A stretch of DNA of 8,225 nucleotides from a virus (lineage: Duplodnaviria; Heunggongvirae; Uroviricota; Caudoviricetes), in the IMG/VR virus record IMGVR_UViG_2693429557_000018; one strand, 5' to 3'. Shown in pieces: positions 1 to 8,225 of this stretch. The notes below the pieces were generated by a model that was given only the letters and a program-made list of their open reading frames with translations, was not told the origin of the DNA and ran no database searches. The position numbers were made by a program, and so were the translations under genes. How positions within the stretch are numbered: position 1 is the stretch's first letter; each line of letters opens with the position of its first letter.

Positions 1-65
1 GGTAGTGTCCGCTATTGCCAGTACACCTCATACTGAGGGTACTACGTGATAAGAAAGTAGTTACC

Positions 66-1025
66 ATGAAGATTATCGATAACCTCACCTTTGAACGGGC
101 TAATGAGAAGTTATCGCGGAATGGTATAGCTAATCGTATCCGTAAGGACATTACCATTGCTCAGGATGATTACATTACTAACCTCTTCCCGAAGATGCTG
201 AAATGCGGTCACTGTGGGGGCAATATTGCAATTCACTATAATCATGTACGAACTAAGTATGTTATTTGTCGTAACAGGGAAGAAAAGAAGATCTGCGATG
301 CTAAATCTATCCAGTACATGAGAATTGAAAAGAACATTCTACAGCTTGTCAAAAATGTAGACTTCAATAAATTGATGATGGAAGGTAAGTCGGATTCAGA
401 TTCATTGCTTGCATCATTGCGAGAAGAGTTAAGTACTTTACAGAAAGAGGCAGAAACCTATCAGGTTAAAATTAATGAACGTAAGGCAGCAGGTAAGAAA
501 GCCTCGTTACCATTAATGACGGGTTTAACTGAGGTACAGGATAGAATTGAAGAAATAGAATCTGAGATATTAAATTCAAAGAACATCAAAGAAATCCCTG
601 TATTTGATTTCGATATTAATAAAGTACTTGATCCATTGAATGTCGAGTTACGTGCAAAGTTACGGAAAGAAGTAAGATTAGTACTGAAATCTGTTAAGTA
701 CTGGGTTTTTGAAAAGCGTATATTTGTACAGTTGGAATACTTCAATGATGTCCTATCCCATACGCTTGTGATTGATAACAAGCGGGGCGGGGGTGAAGTA
801 CTACATGAGATCGTAATCTCTGAAACAAGCGGCGAGCGTGTCTACACTGTCAATGAAGAGGGCAAAACCGTTTTCATTGCCTCCGTTACATCTGGTACTG
901 ATATGTGGTCGCTTGCCATTAGCCGTACCAAAATACTTGATGATGTTGGATTGTATCTTAATCTTCTCAAGCGTGAAAAATTTGAGATCATTGTTAATGA
1001 AGATATGATTGATTGGATGGATTAA
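66..1025 (+). CDS. Large serine recombinase, C-terminal zinc-ribbon plus coiled-coil portion; N-terminal catalytic domain not encoded in frame in this window (split, frameshifted or truncated gene)
   Basis: Translation has the recombinase-type zinc-ribbon motif (FPKMLKCGHCGG ... YVICRN ... KKICD, i.e. CxxC...C...C) followed by a long coiled-coil-like stretch (LREELSTLQKEAETYQVKINERK...), the C-terminal module of large serine recombinases. First ATG is at 66 (a TTG at 15 has no RBS). There is an in-frame TAG at 3-5 and stops in the other two forward frames at 34-36 and 47-49, so no upstream reading frame continues into this ORF. Confidence 0.6.
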   Translation: MKIIDNLTFERANEKLSRNGIANRIRKDITIAQDDYITNLFPKMLKCGHCGGNIAIHYNHVRTKYVICRNREEKKICDAKSIQYMRIEKNILQLVKNVDFNKLMMEGKSDSDSLLASLREELSTLQKEAETYQVKINERKAAGKKASLPLMTGLTEVQDRIEEIESEILNSKNIKEIPVFDFDINKVLDPLNVELRAKLRKEVRLVLKSVKYWVFEKRIFVQLEYFNDVLSHTLVIDNKRGGGEVLHEIVISETSGERVYTVNEEGKTVFIASVTSGTDMWSLAISRTKILDDVGLYLNLLKREKFEIIVNEDMIDWMD

Positions 1026-1140
1026 AAGCTAATGAGAATTTATGGTCTTGTAGAATGAATTATGCGAGTTAATATTTGAACAATATATCTACGATGTCGA
1101 AATCTAACGGCATTGTAGATAGAGCAATAAAAGAGGGATT

Positions 1141-1230
1141 ATGAATTTTGGATATAACTACGCACCCGATGGGTTTAAGATTTCCGTGCAAAATACAGCA
1201 AATCATTTATATCAGCGTGTGTTAGAATAG
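1141..1230 (+). CDS. Small ORF (29 aa, MNFGYNYAPDGFKISVQNTANHLYQRVLE) of unknown function
   Basis: ATG at 1141 is preceded by a strong Shine-Dalgarno-like AAGAGGG with about 5 nt spacing; stop TAG at 1228-1230. Too short for the supplied ORF track. No similarity recognised. Confidence 0.2.
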   Translation: MNFGYNYAPDGFKISVQNTANHLYQRVLE

Positions 1231-1320
1231 TCAAGGGTAAAATTAACTTTTTTGACTTTTCAACGTTAAACCAGTACCATAGCGTCATTCACTAACGAAT
1301 AGGAGCGATGAAACCATGAG

Positions 1321-1722
1321 ATGAATTCTAAAGAGAGGATTGCCAAAATGCGTAAGAAAGAAAATAAAGCAAAAAAAGAAAAATTCCGTCAATTTTTCCC
1401 TGAGAATTATGATATTGGGATCTCATTGAATGAAGAGAATCAATTAAGGCTTTTTTCAAAGCGGAATGATTCTCAAGATGAGAGCTTATGCAAGTACGAA
1501 TTTTCCAACAAAATTAAAGTTCAGTACATTTTTTTGCCGTATTCTTCTGAAATTCAAGTTATAACAGATGAGTTTCCGCTAACGGAGGCAGGCTGTCAGG
1601 AGTGTACTCAAGCTTTCAAACATCCAATATCAATGGAACTAATTGAAGAGATAAAAGAAGCAAAATGTTCAGTTACTGGACTTGTCATTTATTCGAAACC
1701 TATACTAAAACTTATTAGCTAA
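1321..1722 (+). CDS. Hypothetical protein (133 aa) with a lysine-rich N-terminus
   Basis: Intact ORF on the same strand as its neighbours; AGGAG at 1301-1305 upstream of ATG 1321 (an alternative ATG at 1348 has GAGAGGA upstream). No recognisable motif. Confidence 0.5.
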   Translation: MNSKERIAKMRKKENKAKKEKFRQFFPENYDIGISLNEENQLRLFSKRNDSQDESLCKYEFSNKIKVQYIFLPYSSEIQVITDEFPLTEAGCQECTQAFKHPISMELIEEIKEAKCSVTGLVIYSKPILKLIS

Positions 1723-1798
1723 CACATCCAAATTGTTACGTTTTAAGTACTCCCTCACTAAATACTATAAAGTTGAATGTGAATGGGGGTACTTCAAA

Positions 1799-1972
1799 AT
1801 GGAATGGTTTACTAAATTACTTTACGAGATAGTAGGCTTTGTACTTTACATCTTTCTGATAATCCCAATATATATAGTGCTCATGTTTTTATCTATGATT
1901 TTAGTACTATTGCTTTCCCCATTAAAAATCAAATCGATAAATAAATACGTAGTAAGAAAAATGAAACGCTAA
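1799..1972 (+). CDS. Small hydrophobic (membrane) protein, about 57 aa
   Basis: The ORF track gives 1733..1972, but 1733 is a TTG with no RBS; the first ATG is at 1799 (MEWFTKLLYEIVGFVLYIFLIIPIYIVLMFLSMILVLLLSPLK...), preceded by a G-rich stretch. The product is almost entirely one or two predicted transmembrane helices with a basic C-terminus. Confidence 0.35.
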   Translation: MEWFTKLLYEIVGFVLYIFLIIPIYIVLMFLSMILVLLLSPLKIKSINKYVVRKMKR

Positions 1973-2082
1973 AAGTTTTGGTGCTATACTAATAGTATCA
2001 GAACGATAATGCGTTTTGCCTTCCGCTCCAGCTTTGAACATAAATAATATAGCGACAATAAATTTCCTTTTTAATTAAGATT

Positions 2083-2110
2083 GCCTCTCTTGCGAGAGAG
2101 GTATCTTTTT
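2083..2110 (+). terminator. Candidate rho-independent terminator
   Basis: Hairpin with 7-bp stem CCTCTCT / AGAGAGG (2084-2090 / 2095-2101) and 4-nt loop TGCG, followed immediately by TATCTTTTT; lies between the 1799..1972 ORF and the next gene. Confidence 0.5.
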
Positions 2111-2160
2111 AATTTGGATTTATAAATACAGTATACAAATACACCTATAAGGATATAGAA

Positions 2161-2346
2161 ATGAAAAAAGTAACTTTAAAGGAACGCAAACATCATGTAG
2201 TAACCGCACGTCTTAATGACGATCAAGTACTTGTACTTAACCAGCTAATTAGTAGTGGGAAGGTACAGAAAGATTCATTATCAGCCTGTGTTCAGTACTT
2301 AATTAATCAGTACATGATTTTACAGGGCGGTGGTAATGAAGAATGA
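2161..2346 (+). CDS. Small DNA-binding protein, ribbon-helix-helix-like (CopG/Arc/MobC-type fold predicted)
   Basis: 61-aa ORF with good RBS (AAGGA, 7-nt spacing). The pattern of a basic N-terminus, a short beta-strand-like segment (HHVVTARL) and two helices (DDQVLVLNQLI; SLSACVQYLINQY) is typical of RHH regulators and antitoxins. Assignment is from sequence pattern only. Confidence 0.5.
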   Translation: MKKVTLKERKHHVVTARLNDDQVLVLNQLISSGKVQKDSLSACVQYLINQYMILQGGGNEE

Positions 2347-2638
2347 CTTTGATTTAGTACAATATTTTGATGATTACACAATAGTAGGGGATATGGATTA
2401 TCACTATTTCTATTGTGTGAAGTATCAGGAAGGTTCATTAGAAGCACATTATGAACGAATTGGTGATCCAGAAGTATTAGGTACTATTACATGGAATGGA
2501 AATTACCTAATCGACGGATTACCAATGGTAATGTTTGTACTGGCTGCTGAAGATGAACATAAGGAATGTTTAAACCGTTTGCTAATCGTATGTGAGAAGG
2601 CGAGGGATGAATATAGGCTAAATGCTACTGGCCTCTAA
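2336..2638 (+). CDS. Hypothetical strongly acidic protein (about 100 aa), translationally coupled to the upstream RHH-like gene
   Basis: ATG at 2336 overlaps the end of the upstream ORF (stop 2344-2346) in a different frame; a GTG at 2330 is an alternative start. By hand count about 19 Asp/Glu versus 8 Lys/Arg. No recognisable motif. Confidence 0.5.
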   Translation: MKNDFDLVQYFDDYTIVGDMDYHYFYCVKYQEGSLEAHYERIGDPEVLGTITWNGNYLIDGLPMVMFVLAAEDEHKECLNRLLIVCEKARDEYRLNATGL

Positions 2639-2692
2639 GTAGTAGCAGACGCGATCACATGGAGTGACGCGATAACAACAAGGACGTTTGAT

Positions 2693-3247
2693 ATGAACCC
2701 TAAAATCACTTGGAGATTAATTCCAAATTCAAAACATTACTACGTATCTGAAAATGGCGATGTTTACAATGATAAAACAAAACAGTATATAGCTACGAAA
2801 AACCCATCTAATGGATACAAAAAAGTTTCTATTAATGGCAAATCACTATATGTACATGTTTTGGTTTGTACTTTATTCAATGGTGCTAAACCCATTGGAG
2901 GAAGATACACTGTAGATCATATCGACCGCGATAAAATGAATAACAAAGCAAAAAATTTACGTTGGGTAACTCAGAAGGTTAATAATTCCAATAGAAAGCA
3001 TAAAGGTACTCGTACTCAAAAGCTTACTCTAAAGCAATGGTTAATGATTGTTGGAGAGTACCTTAAAGGACAATTATCTCAATATGCAATCACTAAATGG
3101 TTTTTAAATCAAACTGGTATTAATATTTGCCCTCAGAATATAGGTAAGTTATTCAAAGGTACTACCTATTCAAAATGGTACACAACATATCTTACGAATA
3201 AGCAAAGACAAAGAATACAAAGCCTAACCATTCAACGTAAACCATAA
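2693..3247 (+). CDS. HNH homing endonuclease (NUMOD4-like N-terminus plus HNH_3-type nuclease motif), free-standing
   Basis: N-terminal WRLIPNSKHYYVSENGDVYN (NUMOD4-like), central GYKKVSINGK...YVHVLVC...TVDHIDRDKMNNKAKNLRWVTQKVN (HNH of phage homing endonucleases), basic C-terminal tail; RBS AAGGA 8 nt upstream of ATG 2693. Confidence 0.8.
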   Translation: MNPKITWRLIPNSKHYYVSENGDVYNDKTKQYIATKNPSNGYKKVSINGKSLYVHVLVCTLFNGAKPIGGRYTVDHIDRDKMNNKAKNLRWVTQKVNNSNRKHKGTRTQKLTLKQWLMIVGEYLKGQLSQYAITKWFLNQTGINICPQNIGKLFKGTTYSKWYTTYLTNKQRQRIQSLTIQRKP

Positions 3248-3250
3248 AAA

Positions 3251-3274
3251 ATGCCAGTATTCCAGTACTGGCAT
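3251..3274 (+). terminator. Perfect 9-bp inverted repeat hairpin directly after the homing endonuclease gene; weak terminator candidate
   Basis: ATGCCAGTA (3251-3259), loop TTCCAG, TACTGGCAT (3266-3274), 4 nt after the stop codon; followed by CTATTC, which is not a clean U-tract. Confidence 0.3.
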
Positions 3275-3368
3275 CTATTCAAAACTCAATGGCAATGAAG
3301 CCAAACTTATTAAATGGCCTGTAATCACTACGGGTCACGATTAATTAATTTATACAGGATTATTTATC

Positions 3369-3830
3369 ATGGCAAAAACCTATTCAACTTTTGATAACAG
3401 AAACATAAAAGCACTAATTAGCCAGTACAAGCTATATAAAGATATCCCATGCGAAGACATCAAGAACATCATGAAGGACTCAGTAGCTAAACTTAAAGTG
3501 AGAGATAAGATTAGTGTATATGATGTGTTTGCAGTATTGAGTAATGAAGATGAATTACGGAATGATTTACTATTCAATACTATCAATGCTATTAAAGTAC
3601 AACAGAATAAGAAACAAGTAAAAGAACGTATGATCAGGTACTATGGGGCAGCGATCACGGATGCAGCAAAACGAATAGAGCAGTATATGTTGGCACACCC
3701 AAACGCACTGCCAGCACCAGTATATGGACAAAGAACACTAACATATAAAGAGTTTGGTAAACTATTGGAACTACAAAAACAAGGTGACTTTATTGATGAC
3801 ATGATCGAGTACTTAAAGGGCTTGCGTTAA
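3369..3830 (+). CDS. Hypothetical protein (153 aa)
   Basis: Intact ORF with ATG at 3369 and AGGA-containing upstream region; no recognisable motif. Confidence 0.55.
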   Translation: MAKTYSTFDNRNIKALISQYKLYKDIPCEDIKNIMKDSVAKLKVRDKISVYDVFAVLSNEDELRNDLLFNTINAIKVQQNKKQVKERMIRYYGAAITDAAKRIEQYMLAHPNALPAPVYGQRTLTYKEFGKLLELQKQGDFIDDMIEYLKGLR

Positions 3831-3840
3831 TTGTAACTTA

Positions 3841-3923
3841 TTACGGCATATTACGGCATGGATGTATGCCGTAATACGGCAAAAAAAGCCCCTGAAACCC
3901 GCTATTTACCATCAATACGGCAA
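3841..3923. repeat. Cluster of TACGGCA-core repeats (iteron-like): two direct TTACGGCAT copies, one inverted copy forming a 9-bp hairpin, and two AATACGGCAA copies
   Basis: TTACGGCAT at 3841-3849 and 3851-3859; inverted ATGCCGTAA at 3866-3874 (loop GGATGT); AATACGGCAA at 3873-3882 and 3914-3923; A7 run at 3881-3887. Read directly from the sequence. Confidence 0.6.
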
Positions 3924-4293
3924 CTAAGTATAGAGATACGAAATCCATTCCATTTCATTCCATGTATTTCTTTCTCTATCAGTATTCCAAGAAACTGTGA
4001 CTTGCGTCACGAATACTACTCGTCGTGAACTCCTCGTAGTATTGGTTAGTAACGTTGCGTTTTTCTCGCCAGTACTCGAAAACCCGCAAGGCGTTACTAC
4101 TCGCTTTGCTCGATAGATGTTAGTACAGCAAATGAAGTACCTAAAGTGAATTGGTAAGTACGACATGCCCCGCCAGTTCCACAACTCTCGCTCTGGTCAT
4201 TTCCACTACTATGATGCTATTGGATAGCTACATAAAGTACTGGATCAAGTAGGCATTTTTTGTGTACAAAGAGGGAATTAAGAGAGGGATACC

Positions 4294-5037
4294 ATGAACA
4301 GAAAACAATTCATCCAGTCGCATGGTGCTACTTGTAGTAACTGGACTTGGAGTTGGTCATTTGTGAACCACGACAAGAAAATGGTTATCTTTGGTGCATG
4401 GGATGTACAAAAAGAGCAAGAAAGATCAGTCATTCTGAGGGAGCGGTGGAAAACCAAAGTTGTGGAGGGAAAGGAAAGAAAAAATCTTGGATATATTCAA
4501 GCTATTGAACACATTCAATTGATAGCTGAAGGTTATGAGCTTTACACGTTTGATATGGAGCAGGGACGAAACGATGAGAATAGAGATGTAGCTGTTATCA
4601 AACGGTTCACTCCAAAACTTGAAAAACGTTACCTTCGGAAAGAAGGAACAGTTTGGTATGCAGACTTTTTACCTAATCCATTTCCAGATGAAATTACCTC
4701 ACCTGAAAACTACGCTGAGGGTGCAAAAAAGCAAGTTACAGTAAACTCCTACGAGCGTGATCCAAAAGCACGACAGGCTTGTATTGACCATCATGGTACT
4801 TCCTGCGGGTGTTGTGAGTTTAACTTTGAGAAAGTCTATGGTGAACACGCCAAGGGCTTTATACACGTTCATCATATCAAACCGCTACACACAGTAGGCG
4901 AGGATTACGAGGTAAATCCAATTACTGATATGGTTCCACTTTGTCCAAACTGTCACGCAATGGTACATCGCGGTAACGAAGTATTAAGTGTCGAAAGTTT
5001 AAAAGCACTGTTGTTTAAAGACAGCAATAAAATTTGA
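4294..5037 (+). CDS. HNH-family nuclease with an uncharacterised ~160-aa N-terminal domain (candidate restriction/defence nuclease)
   Basis: C-terminal HNH signature CIDHHGTSCGCCEF ... HVHHIKPL ... NPITDMVPLCPNCHAMVH (Cys-rich zinc site, His-His, Asn, terminal His); strong RBS AGAGAGGG 5 nt upstream of ATG 4294. The N-terminal region (QSHGATCSNWTWSWSFVNHDKKMVIFGAWD...) is not recognisable to me. Confidence 0.8.
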   Translation: MNRKQFIQSHGATCSNWTWSWSFVNHDKKMVIFGAWDVQKEQERSVILRERWKTKVVEGKERKNLGYIQAIEHIQLIAEGYELYTFDMEQGRNDENRDVAVIKRFTPKLEKRYLRKEGTVWYADFLPNPFPDEITSPENYAEGAKKQVTVNSYERDPKARQACIDHHGTSCGCCEFNFEKVYGEHAKGFIHVHHIKPLHTVGEDYEVNPITDMVPLCPNCHAMVHRGNEVLSVESLKALLFKDSNKI

Positions 5038-5050
5038 ATTTATTTTAGAC

Positions 5051-5079
5051 TTGATACGACATACTTGAAAAGTTATGAA
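5051..5079 (+). promoter_or_regulatory. Candidate sigma70-type promoter for the 5120..5593 gene
   Basis: TTGATA (5051-5056), 17-nt spacer, TATGAA (5074-5079), about 40 nt upstream of ATG 5120. Pattern match only. Confidence 0.25.
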
Positions 5080-5119
5080 TACAATATGCTTTAAATTAGA
5101 CATGTAAGTTGAGAGAAAA

Positions 5120-5593
5120 ATGAGCATAACAACAATAGCAGCTACATATAAAGATGTGTTAACTATTGCTTTTTCGGCGTTGTCATTTATTATTGCATGT
5201 ACTTCCTTATACTTCTCCGGTAGGGCAGCATGGCATGATAGATCAAGGCTAAAAATAACAGCTGACCTCGTCTACGAGTCTTTTGATGAGGAACCTTATA
5301 AAATCGAGGTGATAGTGATCAATGTTGGTAGGCGTGATGCAGTTTTGGAAGGGATGCTTTGCCATTATGAAAAAGGCATTAGGAGCCATTCATCTCCAAA
5401 AGAGAGCATTGTTATTAAAGAAAAGCAAAGAAAAAAATTTGAATTGGTAAGCTCAGACTTAGTCACGATAGATAATGAATGTGATATTTGTCATTTAGAA
5501 GATATAACTATTTTAGATGTGGAGGGGAATGAACATAAAATCCCTAACTCTCACAGACTCATTGCATTACTTAAGCAAGATAAAAAGACTTAA
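5120..5593 (+). CDS. Membrane-anchored hypothetical protein (157 aa; one N-terminal transmembrane helix)
   Basis: Intact ORF 82 nt downstream of the HNH nuclease gene; N-terminal hydrophobic segment (LTIAFSALSFIIACTSLYF), then a soluble domain with a CDICH motif; GAGAG upstream of the ATG. Confidence 0.55.
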   Translation: MSITTIAATYKDVLTIAFSALSFIIACTSLYFSGRAAWHDRSRLKITADLVYESFDEEPYKIEVIVINVGRRDAVLEGMLCHYEKGIRSHSSPKESIVIKEKQRKKFELVSSDLVTIDNECDICHLEDITILDVEGNEHKIPNSHRLIALLKQDKKT

Positions 5594-5632
5594 GAATAAT
5601 ATTTTTTGGAATGTAAGGTAAATGTTAGATGC

Positions 5633-5673
5633 CACTATAGATTGAGGGTTAGAACTACTAACCCACTATAGGG
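5633..5673 (+). promoter_or_regulatory. Two copies of a T7-class phage promoter core (CACTATAG / CACTATAGGG) flanking a 7-bp inverted repeat
   Basis: CACTATAG at 5633-5640 and CACTATAGGG at 5664-5673 (identical to T7 promoter positions -7 to +3); between them GGGTTAG (5646-5652) / CTAACCC (5658-5664) form an inverted repeat with loop AACTA. The -17 to -8 region does not match T7 itself. Confidence 0.2.
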
Positions 5674-5849
5674 TTTACGAGATGATAAGAATGGAATTTA
5701 ACACCTACGATGGTGATATATATTACTTCCTCTATTTATATAGGAGGTACGAAAGGGGGAGTACTTTAATGAAGACCTTATAAATCTTAATGTTGAGATG
5801 TTAGTTATAGCGGTGAGGATACCCCACCGTCTATTGGGAGTTGTGGACT

Positions 5850-6518
5850 CTAATTAGAGAAAACGAATAAGTTATTCATGTCCTTTTTCAAGGTTGCATG
5901 TGCTTCTATTAAACTATCAAATGTATCTACTAATAACTTTCCATAGCTGACATTGTAATGATATCTATCATGAATGTCATTTATATCAAAACTTATCGCT
6001 TCCCTCAATGTTCCTAAAGCAATTTGATTACTGAAGAAATAATTATTGAATATAGCTTCATCTTTTGGCGATACTTTCCAAAAGGTAAGTGATTGCAATT
6101 CGCTTTTTAATGAGGCTAACTTAATGTTTAATAGATCGATAACTTCTCGTTCAGTTTTAACTAAATGTGCGAAATTTTTTGGTTCTATATCTGGTTCAGT
6201 ATTGTTAAGGTTGCATATATTTTCATATGTTTTCAACATCTCCAACGAAAAAAGATCGCAATTAGTCCAGAACTTAGTAACTTGATTTAAAGCATTTTCC
6301 TTTATTTTAGTTTGAAACCAATTTTTAGCGTTCCATGCTGCATATAGGGCTGCTCCAGCCATAATGAGATTGGCAATAGAACTAACCCAGTCACTAACCG
6401 ATCCCCACTCGAAACCTTCAGAACCAACAAAGAGTGATTTTATTAGTACTAAAATTACAACAACCAGTAATACTGCTACGGTCGATAAAAGAACGATATT
6501 TAATTTTCTACAATCCAT
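5850..6518 (-). CDS. Hypothetical membrane protein (222 aa; two N-terminal transmembrane segments, helical C-terminal domain)
   Basis: Intact minus-strand ORF, AT-rich; N-terminus LLSTVAVLLVVVILVLI plus a second hydrophobic segment VSSIANLIMAGAALYAAW. Convergent with the 5120..5593 gene. No recognisable catalytic motif. Confidence 0.55.
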   Translation of the reverse strand: MDCRKLNIVLLSTVAVLLVVVILVLIKSLFVGSEGFEWGSVSDWVSSIANLIMAGAALYAAWNAKNWFQTKIKENALNQVTKFWTNCDLFSLEMLKTYENICNLNNTEPDIEPKNFAHLVKTEREVIDLLNIKLASLKSELQSLTFWKVSPKDEAIFNNYFFSNQIALGTLREAISFDINDIHDRYHYNVSYGKLLVDTFDSLIEAHATLKKDMNNLFVFSN

Positions 6519-6592
6519 CGAAAGTAGTTCCTGAACGCATTAAAGGGGCAAATACTTTACCATCCGAAACACAATCAAGTACACTACCCGTT

Positions 6593-6645
6593 CACGTACT
6601 GCTCACATGTTGGGTTTGTTATTTTGTTGGGGTGAGCAGTACGTG
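6593..6645. repeat. Perfect 14-bp inverted repeat with a 25-nt loop containing a direct GTTGGG repeat
   Basis: CACGTACTGCTCAC (6593-6606) and GTGAGCAGTACGTG (6632-6645) are exact reverse complements; loop ATGTTGGGTTTGTTATTTTGTTGGG. Lies 6 nt beyond the stop of the 6651..6962 gene, at the AT-rich to GC-balanced transition. No adjacent U-tract on either strand. Confidence 0.7.
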
Positions 6646-6650
6646 TATCC

Positions 6651-6962
6651 TCAGAAGGGTAGTTCCCCCTGATCACAGAACCAATCACCTTCTTCACTGC
6701 TTTGATTCATCCGGTACTCAGCAGATAGATATGCTAACCCATCAATAACACTTATTAGTGGTGTTTCACAGGTAAGTACAAAACAATCTCTCTCTATAGT
6801 ACCTAACCAGTATTCCCTGTACTGATTCTGGAAGAATACCCTATCCCCATAATGAAATTCTGTTAGTGCAGATCCCCAATAACACACGGTTGCCCAGCGA
6901 CCGTTATGTGAGAACTTCTGAACCCCTCGCGTAATGGATGGATCATAGCCGTCTTTGCTCAT
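6651..6962 (-). CDS. Hypothetical protein (103 aa), probably SOS (LexA) regulated
   Basis: Minus-strand ORF with strong RBS (GAGGAGGG, about 6 nt spacing) and a near-consensus LexA box 22 nt upstream of the ATG; visibly higher GC than the upstream cargo. No recognisable motif in the product. Confidence 0.6.
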   Translation of the reverse strand: MSKDGYDPSITRGVQKFSHNGRWATVCYWGSALTEFHYGDRVFFQNQYREYWLGTIERDCFVLTCETPLISVIDGLAYLSAEYRMNQSSEEGDWFCDQGELPF

Positions 6963-6983
6963 TTGTTACCCTCCTCTATGTAT

Positions 6984-7003
6984 TACTGTATATATGTACA
7001 GTA
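6984..7003. promoter_or_regulatory. LexA (SOS) box, gammaproteobacterial type
   Basis: TACTGTATATATGTACAGTA = CTGT-N8-ACAG, 19 of 20 matches to the E. coli consensus TACTGTATATATATACAGTA; sits in the promoter region of the 6651..6962 minus-strand gene and in the divergent intergenic region. Confidence 0.7.
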
Positions 7004-7072
7004 TTGCAGTCAGTTTCCCAAAAATCCAGCACCCCTTTGTTTACCACTTTGAATGATTAATTCTATTGTAAT

Positions 7073-7089
7073 GATCAATAAAATTGATC
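7073..7089. promoter_or_regulatory. GATC-containing palindromic operator-like site (GATCAAT-aaa-ATTGATC), with a third related half-site downstream
   Basis: Perfect 7-bp inverted repeat with 3-bp spacer at 7073-7089; AATGATCAAT is repeated at 7070-7079 and 7113-7122; three GATC sites within about 47 bp, upstream of the 7155..7706 gene. Confidence 0.3.
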
Positions 7090-7154
7090 TATTTAATTGC
7101 CAATGTTTTAAAAATGATCAATTATCAATAACTTAAAGCGTAACGAGCAAAGTT

Positions 7155-7706
7155 ATGAACATTGATAATTGGGCAATACCGATAACAAGTTTGGGTGGTC
7201 AGTTGCTGGGGGTTGAGTTGGTCAGCCATGTAGAACGCGAGGGAATCAGGCAGATCGGCCTATGGGAAGAAGAAGTACTTCATGGGCAACTAATGCTTAT
7301 TGAAAGCAAGGCGGCATGGTTCAGGGATAACGGTTTGTATTGTGTGATTACTACTGGCCGTGGTGAACCATACGAGTACTTACCATTCCTTCGGCAGATG
7401 ACAAGGGATATGAAAGTACATAACCAGCAGTGGCTTGATGATCTCGGTGTACATGGTGGTTCTGCTATTCCTCTGGTTACAGGTGATTTCGAGGTTGCCC
7501 GATTAAATAGAAGGTACACAGAAGAGAACATTGACCGTCTGATCTTTCCAGTACTCATAAAAAGCATTCGCCAGTACTGCGAGAAGGTGATCGTACCCGT
7601 CAGAGATAAAACGTATTACCCAATTCTCAGAGAGGCCGGTGTATGGGCGGTACAGGGAGAGTTCAGGCCAATGCGTTTTGAGCAATGTGAAAAATTAATA
7701 GGATAA
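7155..7706 (+). CDS. Degenerate EAL-like domain protein (183 aa), probably catalytically inactive
   Basis: Motifs resembling the EAL fold in the right order: GVELVSH in place of the EAL motif, LDDLGVHGGS resembling DDFGTGYSS, GVWAVQGEFRPMRF resembling the QG-x-x-F-x-P C-terminal motif. The domain is shorter than a canonical EAL domain and key residues look substituted. Pattern match by eye only. Confidence 0.5.
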   Translation: MNIDNWAIPITSLGGQLLGVELVSHVEREGIRQIGLWEEEVLHGQLMLIESKAAWFRDNGLYCVITTGRGEPYEYLPFLRQMTRDMKVHNQQWLDDLGVHGGSAIPLVTGDFEVARLNRRYTEENIDRLIFPVLIKSIRQYCEKVIVPVRDKTYYPILREAGVWAVQGEFRPMRFEQCEKLIG

Positions 7707-7711
7707 CAATA

Positions 7712-8074
7712 ATGAAAAAATTACTAATTGGGTTACTGATTGCCCTTAGTACTGGATGTACTACTACGCACAGCTTCATGGATAAAGCTTACGTTGGCTA
7801 TGTAGATGACAAGGCCGTAGTACTGTTTGATGCAGGAACACGTAATGGGGTGAAGTACTACCGTCCTCAGTTCCAGAGTGATTGCGGTCGCATCTATAAC
7901 AAGATCTATCATGATGACAATACAAGTACTGGATGCCTCATACGAGATTCCCGCATTGCTGAACTACATCCCTATAGAGAGCATGTAAGTAAGGTAGTAC
8001 CACATCAGACCGATAGTGTTCACGATTGGTTAGAAGGGGTCAATTCACCATCCCATATCCTCGACAATCTATAG
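7712..8074 (+). CDS. Probable lipoprotein (120 aa)
   Basis: Signal peptide MKKLLIGLLIALSTGC with lipobox-like LSTGC (Cys at +1); starts 5 nt after the EAL-like gene stop with AGGAT RBS, so probably in the same operon. Confidence 0.65.
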   Translation: MKKLLIGLLIALSTGCTTTHSFMDKAYVGYVDDKAVVLFDAGTRNGVKYYRPQFQSDCGRIYNKIYHDDNTSTGCLIRDSRIAELHPYREHVSKVVPHQTDSVHDWLEGVNSPSHILDNL

Positions 8075-8081
8075 GGTACGT

Positions 8082-8225
8082 ATGGGAAAGGTAATGGTGA
8101 TTTTGTTAGTACTGGCTGGGGTACTCTTCAACATTGCAGGTGAGGATGCACCCCAGCCACAGTACACGGACAATGAGTGGATTTGCCCCTATATTTCCAG
8201 ACATCTGTTATCACTTAACCCATTA
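8082..8225 (+). CDS. 3'-truncated ORF with a hydrophobic N-terminus (signal peptide or membrane anchor)
   Basis: ATG at 8082 (second in-frame ATG at 8094) starts 7 nt after the lipoprotein stop; translation MGKVMVILLVLAGVLFNIAGEDAPQPQYTDNEWICPYISRHLLSLNPL runs open to the window end. Confidence 0.4.
   Translation, partial: MGKVMVILLVLAGVLFNIAGEDAPQPQYTDNEWICPYISRHLLSLNPL

Follow-up and report, generated by a model that had tools for sequence, protein, structure and literature searches.

The palindromic tetramer GTAC, and above all the hexamer AGTACT, is strongly over-represented in an 8,225-nucleotide stretch of Caudoviricetes DNA (IMG/VR record IMGVR_UViG_2693429557_000018), referred to below, at its full length, as the window. 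The excess is a genome-wide property of a lineage of temperate phages of Enterobacteriaceae (~35 kb, 37-40% G+C), one of which, as a prophage, contains the window. At synonymous and non-coding positions, hundreds of sites have been kept or formed anew via many mutational routes, and the motif is probably maintained by selection at the DNA level and not at the protein level. The best explanation, and a fairly probable one, is a selectively maintained DNA motif that is read by a putative symmetric factor. A literature search found no paper on the motif excess or on this prophage lineage.

GTAC and AGTACT in the window

Exact counting in the window (8225 bp, 37.1% G+C) gave 24 AGTACT and 81 GTAC, against order-0 expectations of 2.7 and 27.7, respectively. 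A first-pass annotation, made by eye from the letters, had claimed 23 and about 75. The excess that it reported is real, its counts being slightly low, and its rough expectations (about 3 AGTACT and 25-30 GTAC) agree with the order-0 values. Five of the six AGTACT coordinates that it gave as examples are exact, the sixth (7268-7273) being an error for 7274-7279, and the nine sites that it placed in the last 1.6 kb are also nine in the exact count. The AGTACT sites and the one extended palindrome are as follows:

432-437, 623-628, 680-685, 697-702, 797-802: AGTACT (exact count)
1746-1751, 1903-1908, 2226-2231, 2294-2299, 3264-3269: AGTACT (exact count)
3808-3813, 4071-4076, 4236-4241, 5760-5765, 6445-6450: AGTACT (exact count)
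7274-7279, 7375-7380, 7550-7555, 7573-7578, 7748-7753: AGTACT (exact count)
7819-7824, 7854-7859, 7925-7930, 8108-8113: AGTACT (exact count)
3262-3271: sole full 10-bp palindrome, CCAGTACTGG, within a small hairpin downstream of the 2693-3247 gene

Dinucleotide-preserving shuffles gave 2.35±1.55 AGTACT (200 shuffles, maximum 8) and 25.7±4.8 GTAC (1000 shuffles, maximum 42). GTAC stands at the top of the 256 tetramers, both by observed/expected ratio (given as x below) and by order-2 z-score, and AGTACT is the commonest of the 4096 hexamers. Under an order-2 Markov model, the check proposed in the first-pass annotation, the ratio is not near 1 (81 GTAC vs 52 expected, z~4). An order-4 model yields 23.9 AGTACT, matching the observed count; thus, the A at -1 and the T at +1 are independent flanks on a GTAC core.

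The sites are dispersed over different frames and intergenic DNA, as had been noted: GTAC occurs 29, 15 and 19 times in the three codon frames and 18 times between genes, with densities of 10.0/kb in coding and 9.2/kb in non-coding DNA. The flanking context is unique at every site, so the motif is not a repeated element. An element of the repetitive extragenic palindrome (REP), miniature inverted-repeat transposable element (MITE) or operator-array type is likewise rejected, given the unique flanks, the small amount of information beyond the hexamer (at most 0.17 bit) and the location of most sites within open reading frames (ORFs). Synonymous-codon shuffles of the window genes gave 34.7±4.3 GTAC vs 63 observed, and 4.4±1.9 AGTACT vs 19 observed. 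Together with codon-order shuffles and the equal density in non-coding DNA, these exclude codon usage and dipeptides as the cause, and the earlier statement that codon usage is insufficient holds.

Identity of the window and its lineage

Exact-protein look-ups place the window genes in Shigella sonnei assemblies, beside yeaG, in the order 644-aa serine recombinase, window genes, and then GpA-type terminase, portal and protease-capsid genes. The right end of this prophage adjoins mipA and bears a methyltransferase. From this gene context the whole window between its insertion sequence (IS) ends is prophage, including the part at 7.1-8.1 kb that had been taken as host-like; true host DNA is motif-depleted. 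The window is thus a piece of a decayed, IS-riddled S. sonnei prophage of ~37% G+C, and holds no host DNA. Its interior has no match in 5,426 complete E. coli genomes, and an Rfam scan of the window gave no match. Its parts are:

1-36: IS-element end, left boundary, outside the signature DNA; matches transposase-associated DNA in E. coli and Shiga toxin (Stx)-phage records
37-8177: signature-bearing prophage DNA; GTAC 80 (2.9x), AGTACT 24 (8.8x), GCGC 0, CTAG 0
15-1025, plus strand: large serine recombinase, IS-truncated 3' part (Pfam Zn_ribbon_recom)
1026-4293, plus strand: early small genes and an HNH_3/NUMOD4 gene; GTAC 34 vs 11 expected, AGTACT 8
4294-6518: accessory cargo, with genes for a McrA-like HNH protein of 247 aa and for proteins of 157 aa and 222 aa (from block statistics)
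6519-8177: densest block, surrounding a LexA-box module of 103-aa, 183-aa and 120-aa genes (from block statistics)
8178-8225: IS2 end, right boundary, outside the signature DNA; 100% match to IS2 in many records

The left IS end truncates the serine recombinase gene, whose block (37-1025) has 12 GTAC vs 3 expected, and 5 AGTACT. The cargo block is without motif enrichment (GTAC 7 vs 7 expected), and its genes are found in only 5-13 of 33 relatives. The block at 6519-8177 has 27 GTAC vs 6 expected (4.3x), and 9 AGTACT vs 1.

A portal-based search retrieved 58 IMG/VR relatives (58-100% portal identity), and statistics were computed on the 52 loci of at least 9 kb; pooled sets comprised 46 family loci and 24 non-redundant loci (489 kb). 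GTAC is the rank-1 tetramer in 52/52 loci (1.83-3.21x), and AGTACT is at 3.7-12.3x. GCGC is absent from 46 of the 52 and near zero in 5 more; the exception (L030) has 22 GCGC, probably from an included host flank. The same signature is found in Buttiauxella, Scandinavium, Pseudescherichia, Pluralibacter and Citrobacter, and representative phage-bearing genomes are all Enterobacteriaceae, the sampled host genera being motif-depleted. It is carried by a diverged, decayed relative at the same integration site in E. coli AREA_C483, by an intact 35.6-kb relative that splits ybhA in E. coli ESBLEC_MG48 (GTAC 2.15x; MG48 below), and by prophage remnants in Citrobacter freundii, but not by the host flanks of any of these.

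The boundary between phage and host DNA is sharp. Host genes and IS inserts in 1-kb bins have 0-4 GTAC, 0 AGTACT and 3-11 GCGC, compared with 6-22 GTAC, up to 9 AGTACT and 0 GCGC in prophage bins. In pooled host flanks GTAC is at 0.60x, AGTACT at 0.13x (2 vs 15.9 expected) and GCGC at 1.91x. AGTACT is thus ~90 times denser in phage (~2.8/kb) than in host DNA (0.03/kb), and GCGC ~1000 times rarer (~0.006/kb vs 7.1/kb). A host signature is therefore rejected as the source of the excess. Nor is the excess a general trait of A+T-rich islands or coliphages, as the cdgI region, T4-like and RB49-like phages, phage DCP80, the contigs L174 and L190 and a lambdoid prophage are all negative.

Conservation and turnover of sites

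Across the family loci, enrichment of GTAC and AGTACT is 2.4x and 7.4x in non-coding DNA, and 2.6x and 8.6x in coding DNA. Codon choice is steered towards the motif: valine is encoded by GTA in 74% of cases before C vs 38-52% otherwise, tyrosine by TAC in 62% after G vs 26-30% otherwise, and glycine by GGT in 75% before AC vs 56% otherwise.

At ~73% DNA identity, 54.5% of GTAC sites are retained, compared with 27.7% for 23 permuted control words, and GTAC ranks 1 of 24 for retention in all three divergence bins. AGTACT is retained at 43%, against 19.6% for controls. The synonymous third base is kept more often when it completes GTAC (GTA 84% vs 58%; TAC 77% vs 43%). Gains and losses were mapped by Fitch parsimony on a neighbour-joining (NJ) tree for 43 core regions, giving 394 gains and 504 losses of GTAC, with a per-site loss rate of 0.077 vs 0.114 for controls. 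The gains come from at least 12 neighbour words, through both transitions and transversions. Cargo of recent acquisition does not exceed chance: the window block at 4294-6518 has 7 GTAC vs 7 expected, and the OLD gene of MG48 has 1 GTAC vs 6 expected. Conservation above controls and codon steering uphold the first-pass claim that the excess implies selection or a directed process.

Form of the motif and purged palindromes

Pooled AGTACT is at 8.3x in the 46 loci and 8.4x in the 24 non-redundant loci, and CAGTACTG reaches 32x in the latter. Half-flanked forms are at 2-4.5x, so the half-site effect is graded, and the optimum form of the motif is (C/A)AGTACT(G/T). Other GTAC-centred palindromes do not share in the excess, as GGTACC and CGTACG are purged (0.07x). 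This purging is widespread: 28 of the 64 palindromic hexamers, mostly G+C-rich ones, are at 0.25x or below, and GCGC, CCCGGG, GGCGCC, CTGCAG, GGTACC and others are close to 0 in family genomes. GCGC occurs 3 times across 489 kb of the lineage vs 641 expected, in coding and non-coding DNA alike, and is absent from the window (7.6 expected) and from the intact 35.6-kb relative (43 expected). To our knowledge, no known GCGC-specific enterobacterial enzyme accounts for its exclusion.

Avoidance of some words varies between sublineages, CTAG ranging from 0 to 1.0x (0 in the window vs 28 expected) and TGCA from 0 to 1.8x. The MG48 prophage is a patchwork of CTAG-free and CTAG-containing segments, which suggests recombination between sublineages with different restriction histories. 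AGTACT itself is lost in one clade: the 94% identical right-end loci L148 and L150 have 0-1 AGTACT, where ~35 is the family norm, and keep AGTAC half-sites at 4-7x. The loss is presumably restriction avoidance, and suggests AGTACT-specific (ScaI-type) restriction pressure in their host. From this pattern, what is maintained is GTAC, with A preferred additively at -1.

Three other readings of the motif were tried and rejected. Sites for SlmA (GTGAGTACTCAC) would be expected to have GTG/CAC flanks, which the motif does not match: flank mismatches are distributed as expected by chance, and G at -1 is disfavoured (8% vs 19% background). A relation to LexA half-sites is contradicted by the lack of information at -2 and +2. 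Double deamination of GCGC to GTAC would pass through GTGC and GCAC, and these intermediates are not elevated.

The same signature in jumbo phages

Distant homologs of the lineage's lysozyme led to contigs, mostly of 354-378 kb, with the same double signature (GTAC 1.7-2.5x, AGTACT 6-8x, GCGC 0). These are Rak2/Munch-like jumbo myoviruses of Salmonella, Klebsiella, E. coli and Erwinia, and the AGTACT-rich, GCGC-free pairing is found in the cultured jumbo phages Munch, 7t3 and fENko-Kae01. The first 50 kb of Salmonella phage Munch (L199) have 468 GTAC vs 163, 205 AGTACT vs 17 and 0 GCGC vs 48, and 27 palindromic hexamers are absent. Codons are steered in Munch as in the temperate lineage (valine GTA 68% vs 33-53%; tyrosine TAC 58% vs 27-30%). 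The signature was not seen in the T4-like, RB49-like, DCP80, lambdoid prophage, L174 and L190 controls.

Beyond lysozyme, the temperate and jumbo phages share essentially no proteins. Homologs of a GIY-YIG protein, of the methyltransferase and of 12 other family proteins are all missing from the jumbo phages, and a shared enzyme behind both lineages is therefore rejected. One of the two lineages brings its own replication machinery, whereas no gene of the other is recognisable as a replication gene, so that a mutational cause behind both is unlikely. It is simpler to suppose that selection has acted convergently within a shared host family.

Some sites in the early region of Munch directly adjoin sigma70-type -35 and -10 hexamers, and two thirds of sites lie in ORFs. 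Early promoters at 1-6 kb look built as AGTAC-TTGACn ... AGTAC-T(G/T)nTAtAAT (3558/3578, 5347/5367, 1766/1787), with AGTAC immediately 5' of both hexamers, and the first 5 kb hold 40 AGTACT. Chi sites in 50 kb of Munch are oriented, 12 on the gene-sense strand vs 3 on the other.

The restriction resistance of RaK2 DNA has been ascribed to modification (PMC3622015), and the DNA of a related jumbo phage gave restriction digests exactly as predicted in silico. Because Munch is without GCGC and 27 palindromic hexamers, the resistance of Rak2-like phage DNA may come largely from missing sites and not from modification.

Proposed explanation and its alternatives

Under the favoured explanation, GTAC, with its optimum in (C/A)AGTACT(G/T), would be a highly iterated palindrome held by selection on the DNA itself, with each site conferring a small benefit via a symmetric (dimeric, restriction-modification-like) DNA-recognising activity. 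DNA that is rich in AGTACT and free of GCGC would then carry a barcode separating phage from host DNA. The reader would probably be either a factor that the host family shares or a function that evolved convergently, and not an accessory phage methyltransferase, because the unrelated jumbo phages have the same signature and codon steering with almost no common genes. A recognition or modification signal under selection, one of the possibilities raised in the first-pass annotation, fits this evidence as a signal.

Several points weigh against this explanation. No protein that reads the motif was found, and its function is inferred from conservation. The pairs used to measure conservation are phylogenetically non-independent, and because of this the p-values are inflated, with effect sizes that are large and concordant; Fitch parsimony on an NJ tree is crude. 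Spacing of the sites is Poisson-like, with only a 3-bp periodicity and no helical phasing or clustering, and so offers no structural hint. A site-restoring repair process could mimic purifying selection, and the jumbo phage signature could reflect a common restriction landscape and not a common reader. Finally, promoter-linked sites are seen in Munch, whereas a search for promoter association in the temperate lineage found none, and function may differ between the two lineages.

A more specific form of the explanation is offered only tentatively. GTAC/AGTACT may be a "phage-DNA label", read by a conserved Enterobacteriaceae factor or by convergent phage functions, and would then be a counterpart to Chi that is symmetric and present at high density. 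The motif would build up in A+T-rich phages with unmodified DNA, which it would protect or activate, and GCGC, completely missing from them, would be the corresponding "host-only" label. On this view, two unrelated lineages have converged on a two-word barcode.

Among the alternatives, the one that survives best, though unlikely, is that the lineage's own N6-adenine methyltransferase targets the motif, which would then be a protective or self mark, or would be enriched by a methylation-dependent repair ratchet of the kind that Elhai proposed for HIP1, the highly iterated palindrome of cyanobacteria. The lineage's sole methyltransferase has the motifs GAFFTP, LCAGIGRL and GNPPFG, and its structure model (predicted local distance difference test (pLDDT) score 87) has M.TaqI as its best fold match, so it is predicted to be a gamma-class enzyme that methylates DNA at N6 of adenine and not at C5 of cytosine. 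Its gene is the final one ahead of attR in S. sonnei, E. coli AREA_C483 and Citrobacter, its small target-recognition region suits a short site, and cyanobacterial HIP motifs are found together with their cognate methyltransferases (PMC4390886). However, only ~11 of the 59 right ends were found to carry this accessory gene, and its presence bears no relation to the strength of the GTAC/AGTACT excess in these. The intact MG48 prophage bears the signature without it, and has no ORF with PCQ and ENV or [DNST]PP[YFWH], that is, no cytosine-5- or amino-methyltransferase motif. RB49/Krischvirus-like contigs (L106-L108) with a 55%-identical homolog have the opposite bias (AGTACT 0 in 20 kb vs 7 expected; GTAC 0.6x), and the Munch-like phages have no homolog. 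The purging of GGTACC and CGTACG would also be needless under blanket GTAC methylation. A role for methylation is possible only as an accessory layer.

Less probable still is a passive by-product of palindrome avoidance, in which AGTACT, as the one G+C-containing palindrome untargeted by common enterobacterial restriction enzymes, would have been left for sequences to drift into. The excess is indeed always joined to purging, in both phage lineages, with 28 of 64 hexamers low and GCGC near 0. However, the other tolerated palindromes are at 1.0-1.7x and not at 8x, and drift does not produce conservation above controls or codon steering. There is no single-step mutation from the purged palindromes to AGTACT, the GTGC and GCAC intermediates are not elevated, and GTAC half-sites are still enriched in L148/L150, where AGTACT is purged.

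Equally improbable is that the sites are ones that a phage nuclease prefers to cleave or bind, for instance a resolvase that debranches DNA before packaging and is sped by site density. The candidate is a stand-alone GIY-YIG protein of 129-151 aa (PF19835, 59-62 bits), present in 62/62 right ends, with the gene directly after the lysozyme gene and near the lysis genes (L018 40251-41316; S. sonnei L001 17339-18238). A very basic, lineage-restricted partner of 166-202 aa, tightly coupled to the GIY-YIG gene, is present in 60/62. These two are the only universal non-structural DNA enzymes found in the lineage; such universal conservation argues against a mobile homing endonuclease, and the GIY-YIG protein may be a debranching or host-DNA nuclease. 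DCP80 has an endonuclease VII at the equivalent position. On the other side, the structure model of the partner is too poor to use (pLDDT 47), and the Munch-like phages have no homolog, though another nuclease might serve there. The absence of GCGC would also be left unexplained.

A functionless inherited signature of composition or codon usage, such as a relic of a former host, is very unlikely. The phage, at 37% G+C in a host of 50% G+C, is compositionally foreign, as a relic would be. However, the excess is constant at 58-70% protein identity, where synonymous sites are saturated, gains roughly balance losses, the excess is also found in non-coding DNA and above synonymous shuffles, and the sampled host genera are poor in the motif.

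Least credible of all is the very-short-patch (VSP) repair put forward in the first-pass annotation, in which a GTAC cytosine-5 methyltransferase and a Vsr-like enzyme would turn T:G mismatches into the motif. In its favour are the E. coli precedent of CCWGG/CTWGG and the mildly low ATAC/GTAT at order 2 (0.68-0.82); these are outweighed by the lack of both enzymes, of a depleted donor word and of a dominant gain route. A Pfam scan of the window proteins found no cytosine-5 methyltransferase. Vsr had no Pfam, NCBIfam or PHROG match among the window proteins and is absent from the Prokaryotic Genome Annotation Pipeline (PGAP) annotation of two relatives, although remote homologs could have escaped both searches. 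The pooled donor words are not depleted (AATACT/AGTATT 1.08x, AGCACT 1.76x; GTAT/ATAC 0.81-0.93x at order 0), and only ~20% of GTAC gains come from GTAT/ATAC, with transversion routes common.

Comparison with known systems

The closest analogue of the phage motif appears to be HIP1 (GCGATCGC), which is likewise a short palindrome far above Markov expectation, present in all frames and in non-coding DNA, and conserved beyond controls. Conservation of HIP1 sites between related genomes has been read as selection, and their spacing has a long-range periodicity of 10-90 kb (Xu et al. 2018, PMC5861425), where the phage genomes here are only ~35 kb. A link of HIP1 to orphan methyltransferases is debated (Elhai 2015, PMC4390886). 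A phage-borne highly iterated palindrome coupled to restriction-site purging differs from HIP1 in bearer, host depletion, length and composition. HIP1 is borne by a cellular phylum, whereas the motif here is borne by two unrelated phage lineages whose hosts are depleted of it. The excess of HIP1 is 15-300x, compared with 2.4x, 8x and 32x for the 4-, 6- and 8-mer here, and the phage core is 4-6 bp and A+T-rich. There is also no universal cognate methyltransferase, and the excess goes together with a purge of other palindromes on a wholesale scale.

Dcm/Vsr of E. coli (CCWGG up, CTWGG/CTAG down) is alike in that a DNA-level process lifts a short palindrome genome-wide, but it depends on two enzymes, a cytosine-5 methyltransferase and a T:G endonuclease, and depletes its donor word; neither the enzymes nor the depletion is seen here. 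Restriction-site avoidance by phages (Rusinov et al. 2018, PMC6286503) acts in the same genomes, on GCGC and G+C-rich hexamers, and the avoidance of CTAG, of TGCA and, in one clade, of AGTACT switches on and off between sublineages. GTAC/AGTACT is opposite in sign, a restriction-type palindrome that is positively maintained.

Chi (GCTGGTGG) and the DNA uptake sequences and uptake signal sequences (DUS/USS) are also over-represented short words, serving as labels read by a cellular machine. However, they are asymmetric and polar words of 8-12 bp whose enrichment is in the genome of the host itself, whereas GTAC/AGTACT is symmetric, occurs much more densely (every ~110 bp for GTAC and every ~350 bp for AGTACT) and shows the inverse of the host bias. 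The stoperators of cluster A mycobacteriophages are 13-bp asymmetric sites, with ~25-35 per genome, oriented with transcription and bound by the repressor. They resemble the motif in having many copies throughout a temperate phage genome, including inside transcription units, but here there are ~300 GTAC per genome, palindromic and mostly inside ORFs.

Phages are known for losing short palindromes, and here one is maintained at 8-30 times expectation amid such purging. The HIP-type puzzle thereby becomes tractable in E. coli and Salmonella genetics, and the signature is a simple k-mer marker for finding these lineages in metagenomes.

Other features of the prophage lineage

The ~35-kb element, as seen in the MG48 prophage (L018 8485 to L019) and in L017, has no recognisable replication or repressor genes. 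It carries tail genes like those of the gene transfer agent RcGTA (DUF2163, DUF6950), a gene transfer agent-type holin with three transmembrane (TM) segments, and the large serine recombinase. Integration sites differ among members (yeaG|mipA, ybhA, bssR side), and the MG48 copy bears its own HAD phosphatase gene where ybhA is split. Chi sites in the 24 loci are strongly oriented, with 25 on the gene-sense strand and 1 on the opposite strand (2.2 expected each), which points to RecBCD exposure from one end.

Escherichia phage DCP80 (L193, PQ671644.1) was rejected as an isolated relative, as its TerL is only 35% identical, its record looks chimeric and the signature is missing. The record combines T4-like (Gaprivervirus) early genes with a structural module of ~25 kb that includes a GpA-type terminase, rIIA is present twice, and GATC is at 0 vs ~90 expected in both halves.

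Within the window, the HNH_3 and NUMOD4 protein (2693-3247, plus strand) is of the homing-endonuclease type and is found in only 8 of 33 relatives. The 247-aa protein (4294-5037, plus strand) has a C-terminal HNH domain and an uncharacterised N-terminal domain. Its family is stand-alone, ranges from Pseudomonas to Verrucomicrobia, is common outside phages, and has the Joint Genome Institute (JGI) label "5-methylcytosine-specific restriction protein A"; the protein is probably a type IV-like defence factor that the prophage carries as cargo.

A consensus-like LexA SOS box, TACTGTATATATGTACAGTA, lies at 6983-7002 (CTGT-N8-ACAG at 6986-7001), directly upstream of the minus-strand 103-aa gene (6651-6962), in a divergent region common with the 183-aa gene (7155-7706). 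Across the 24 family loci, 17 copies of CTGT-N8-ACAG were counted vs ~6 expected. As the lineage has no annotated CI-type repressor, prophage induction may be wired straight to LexA.

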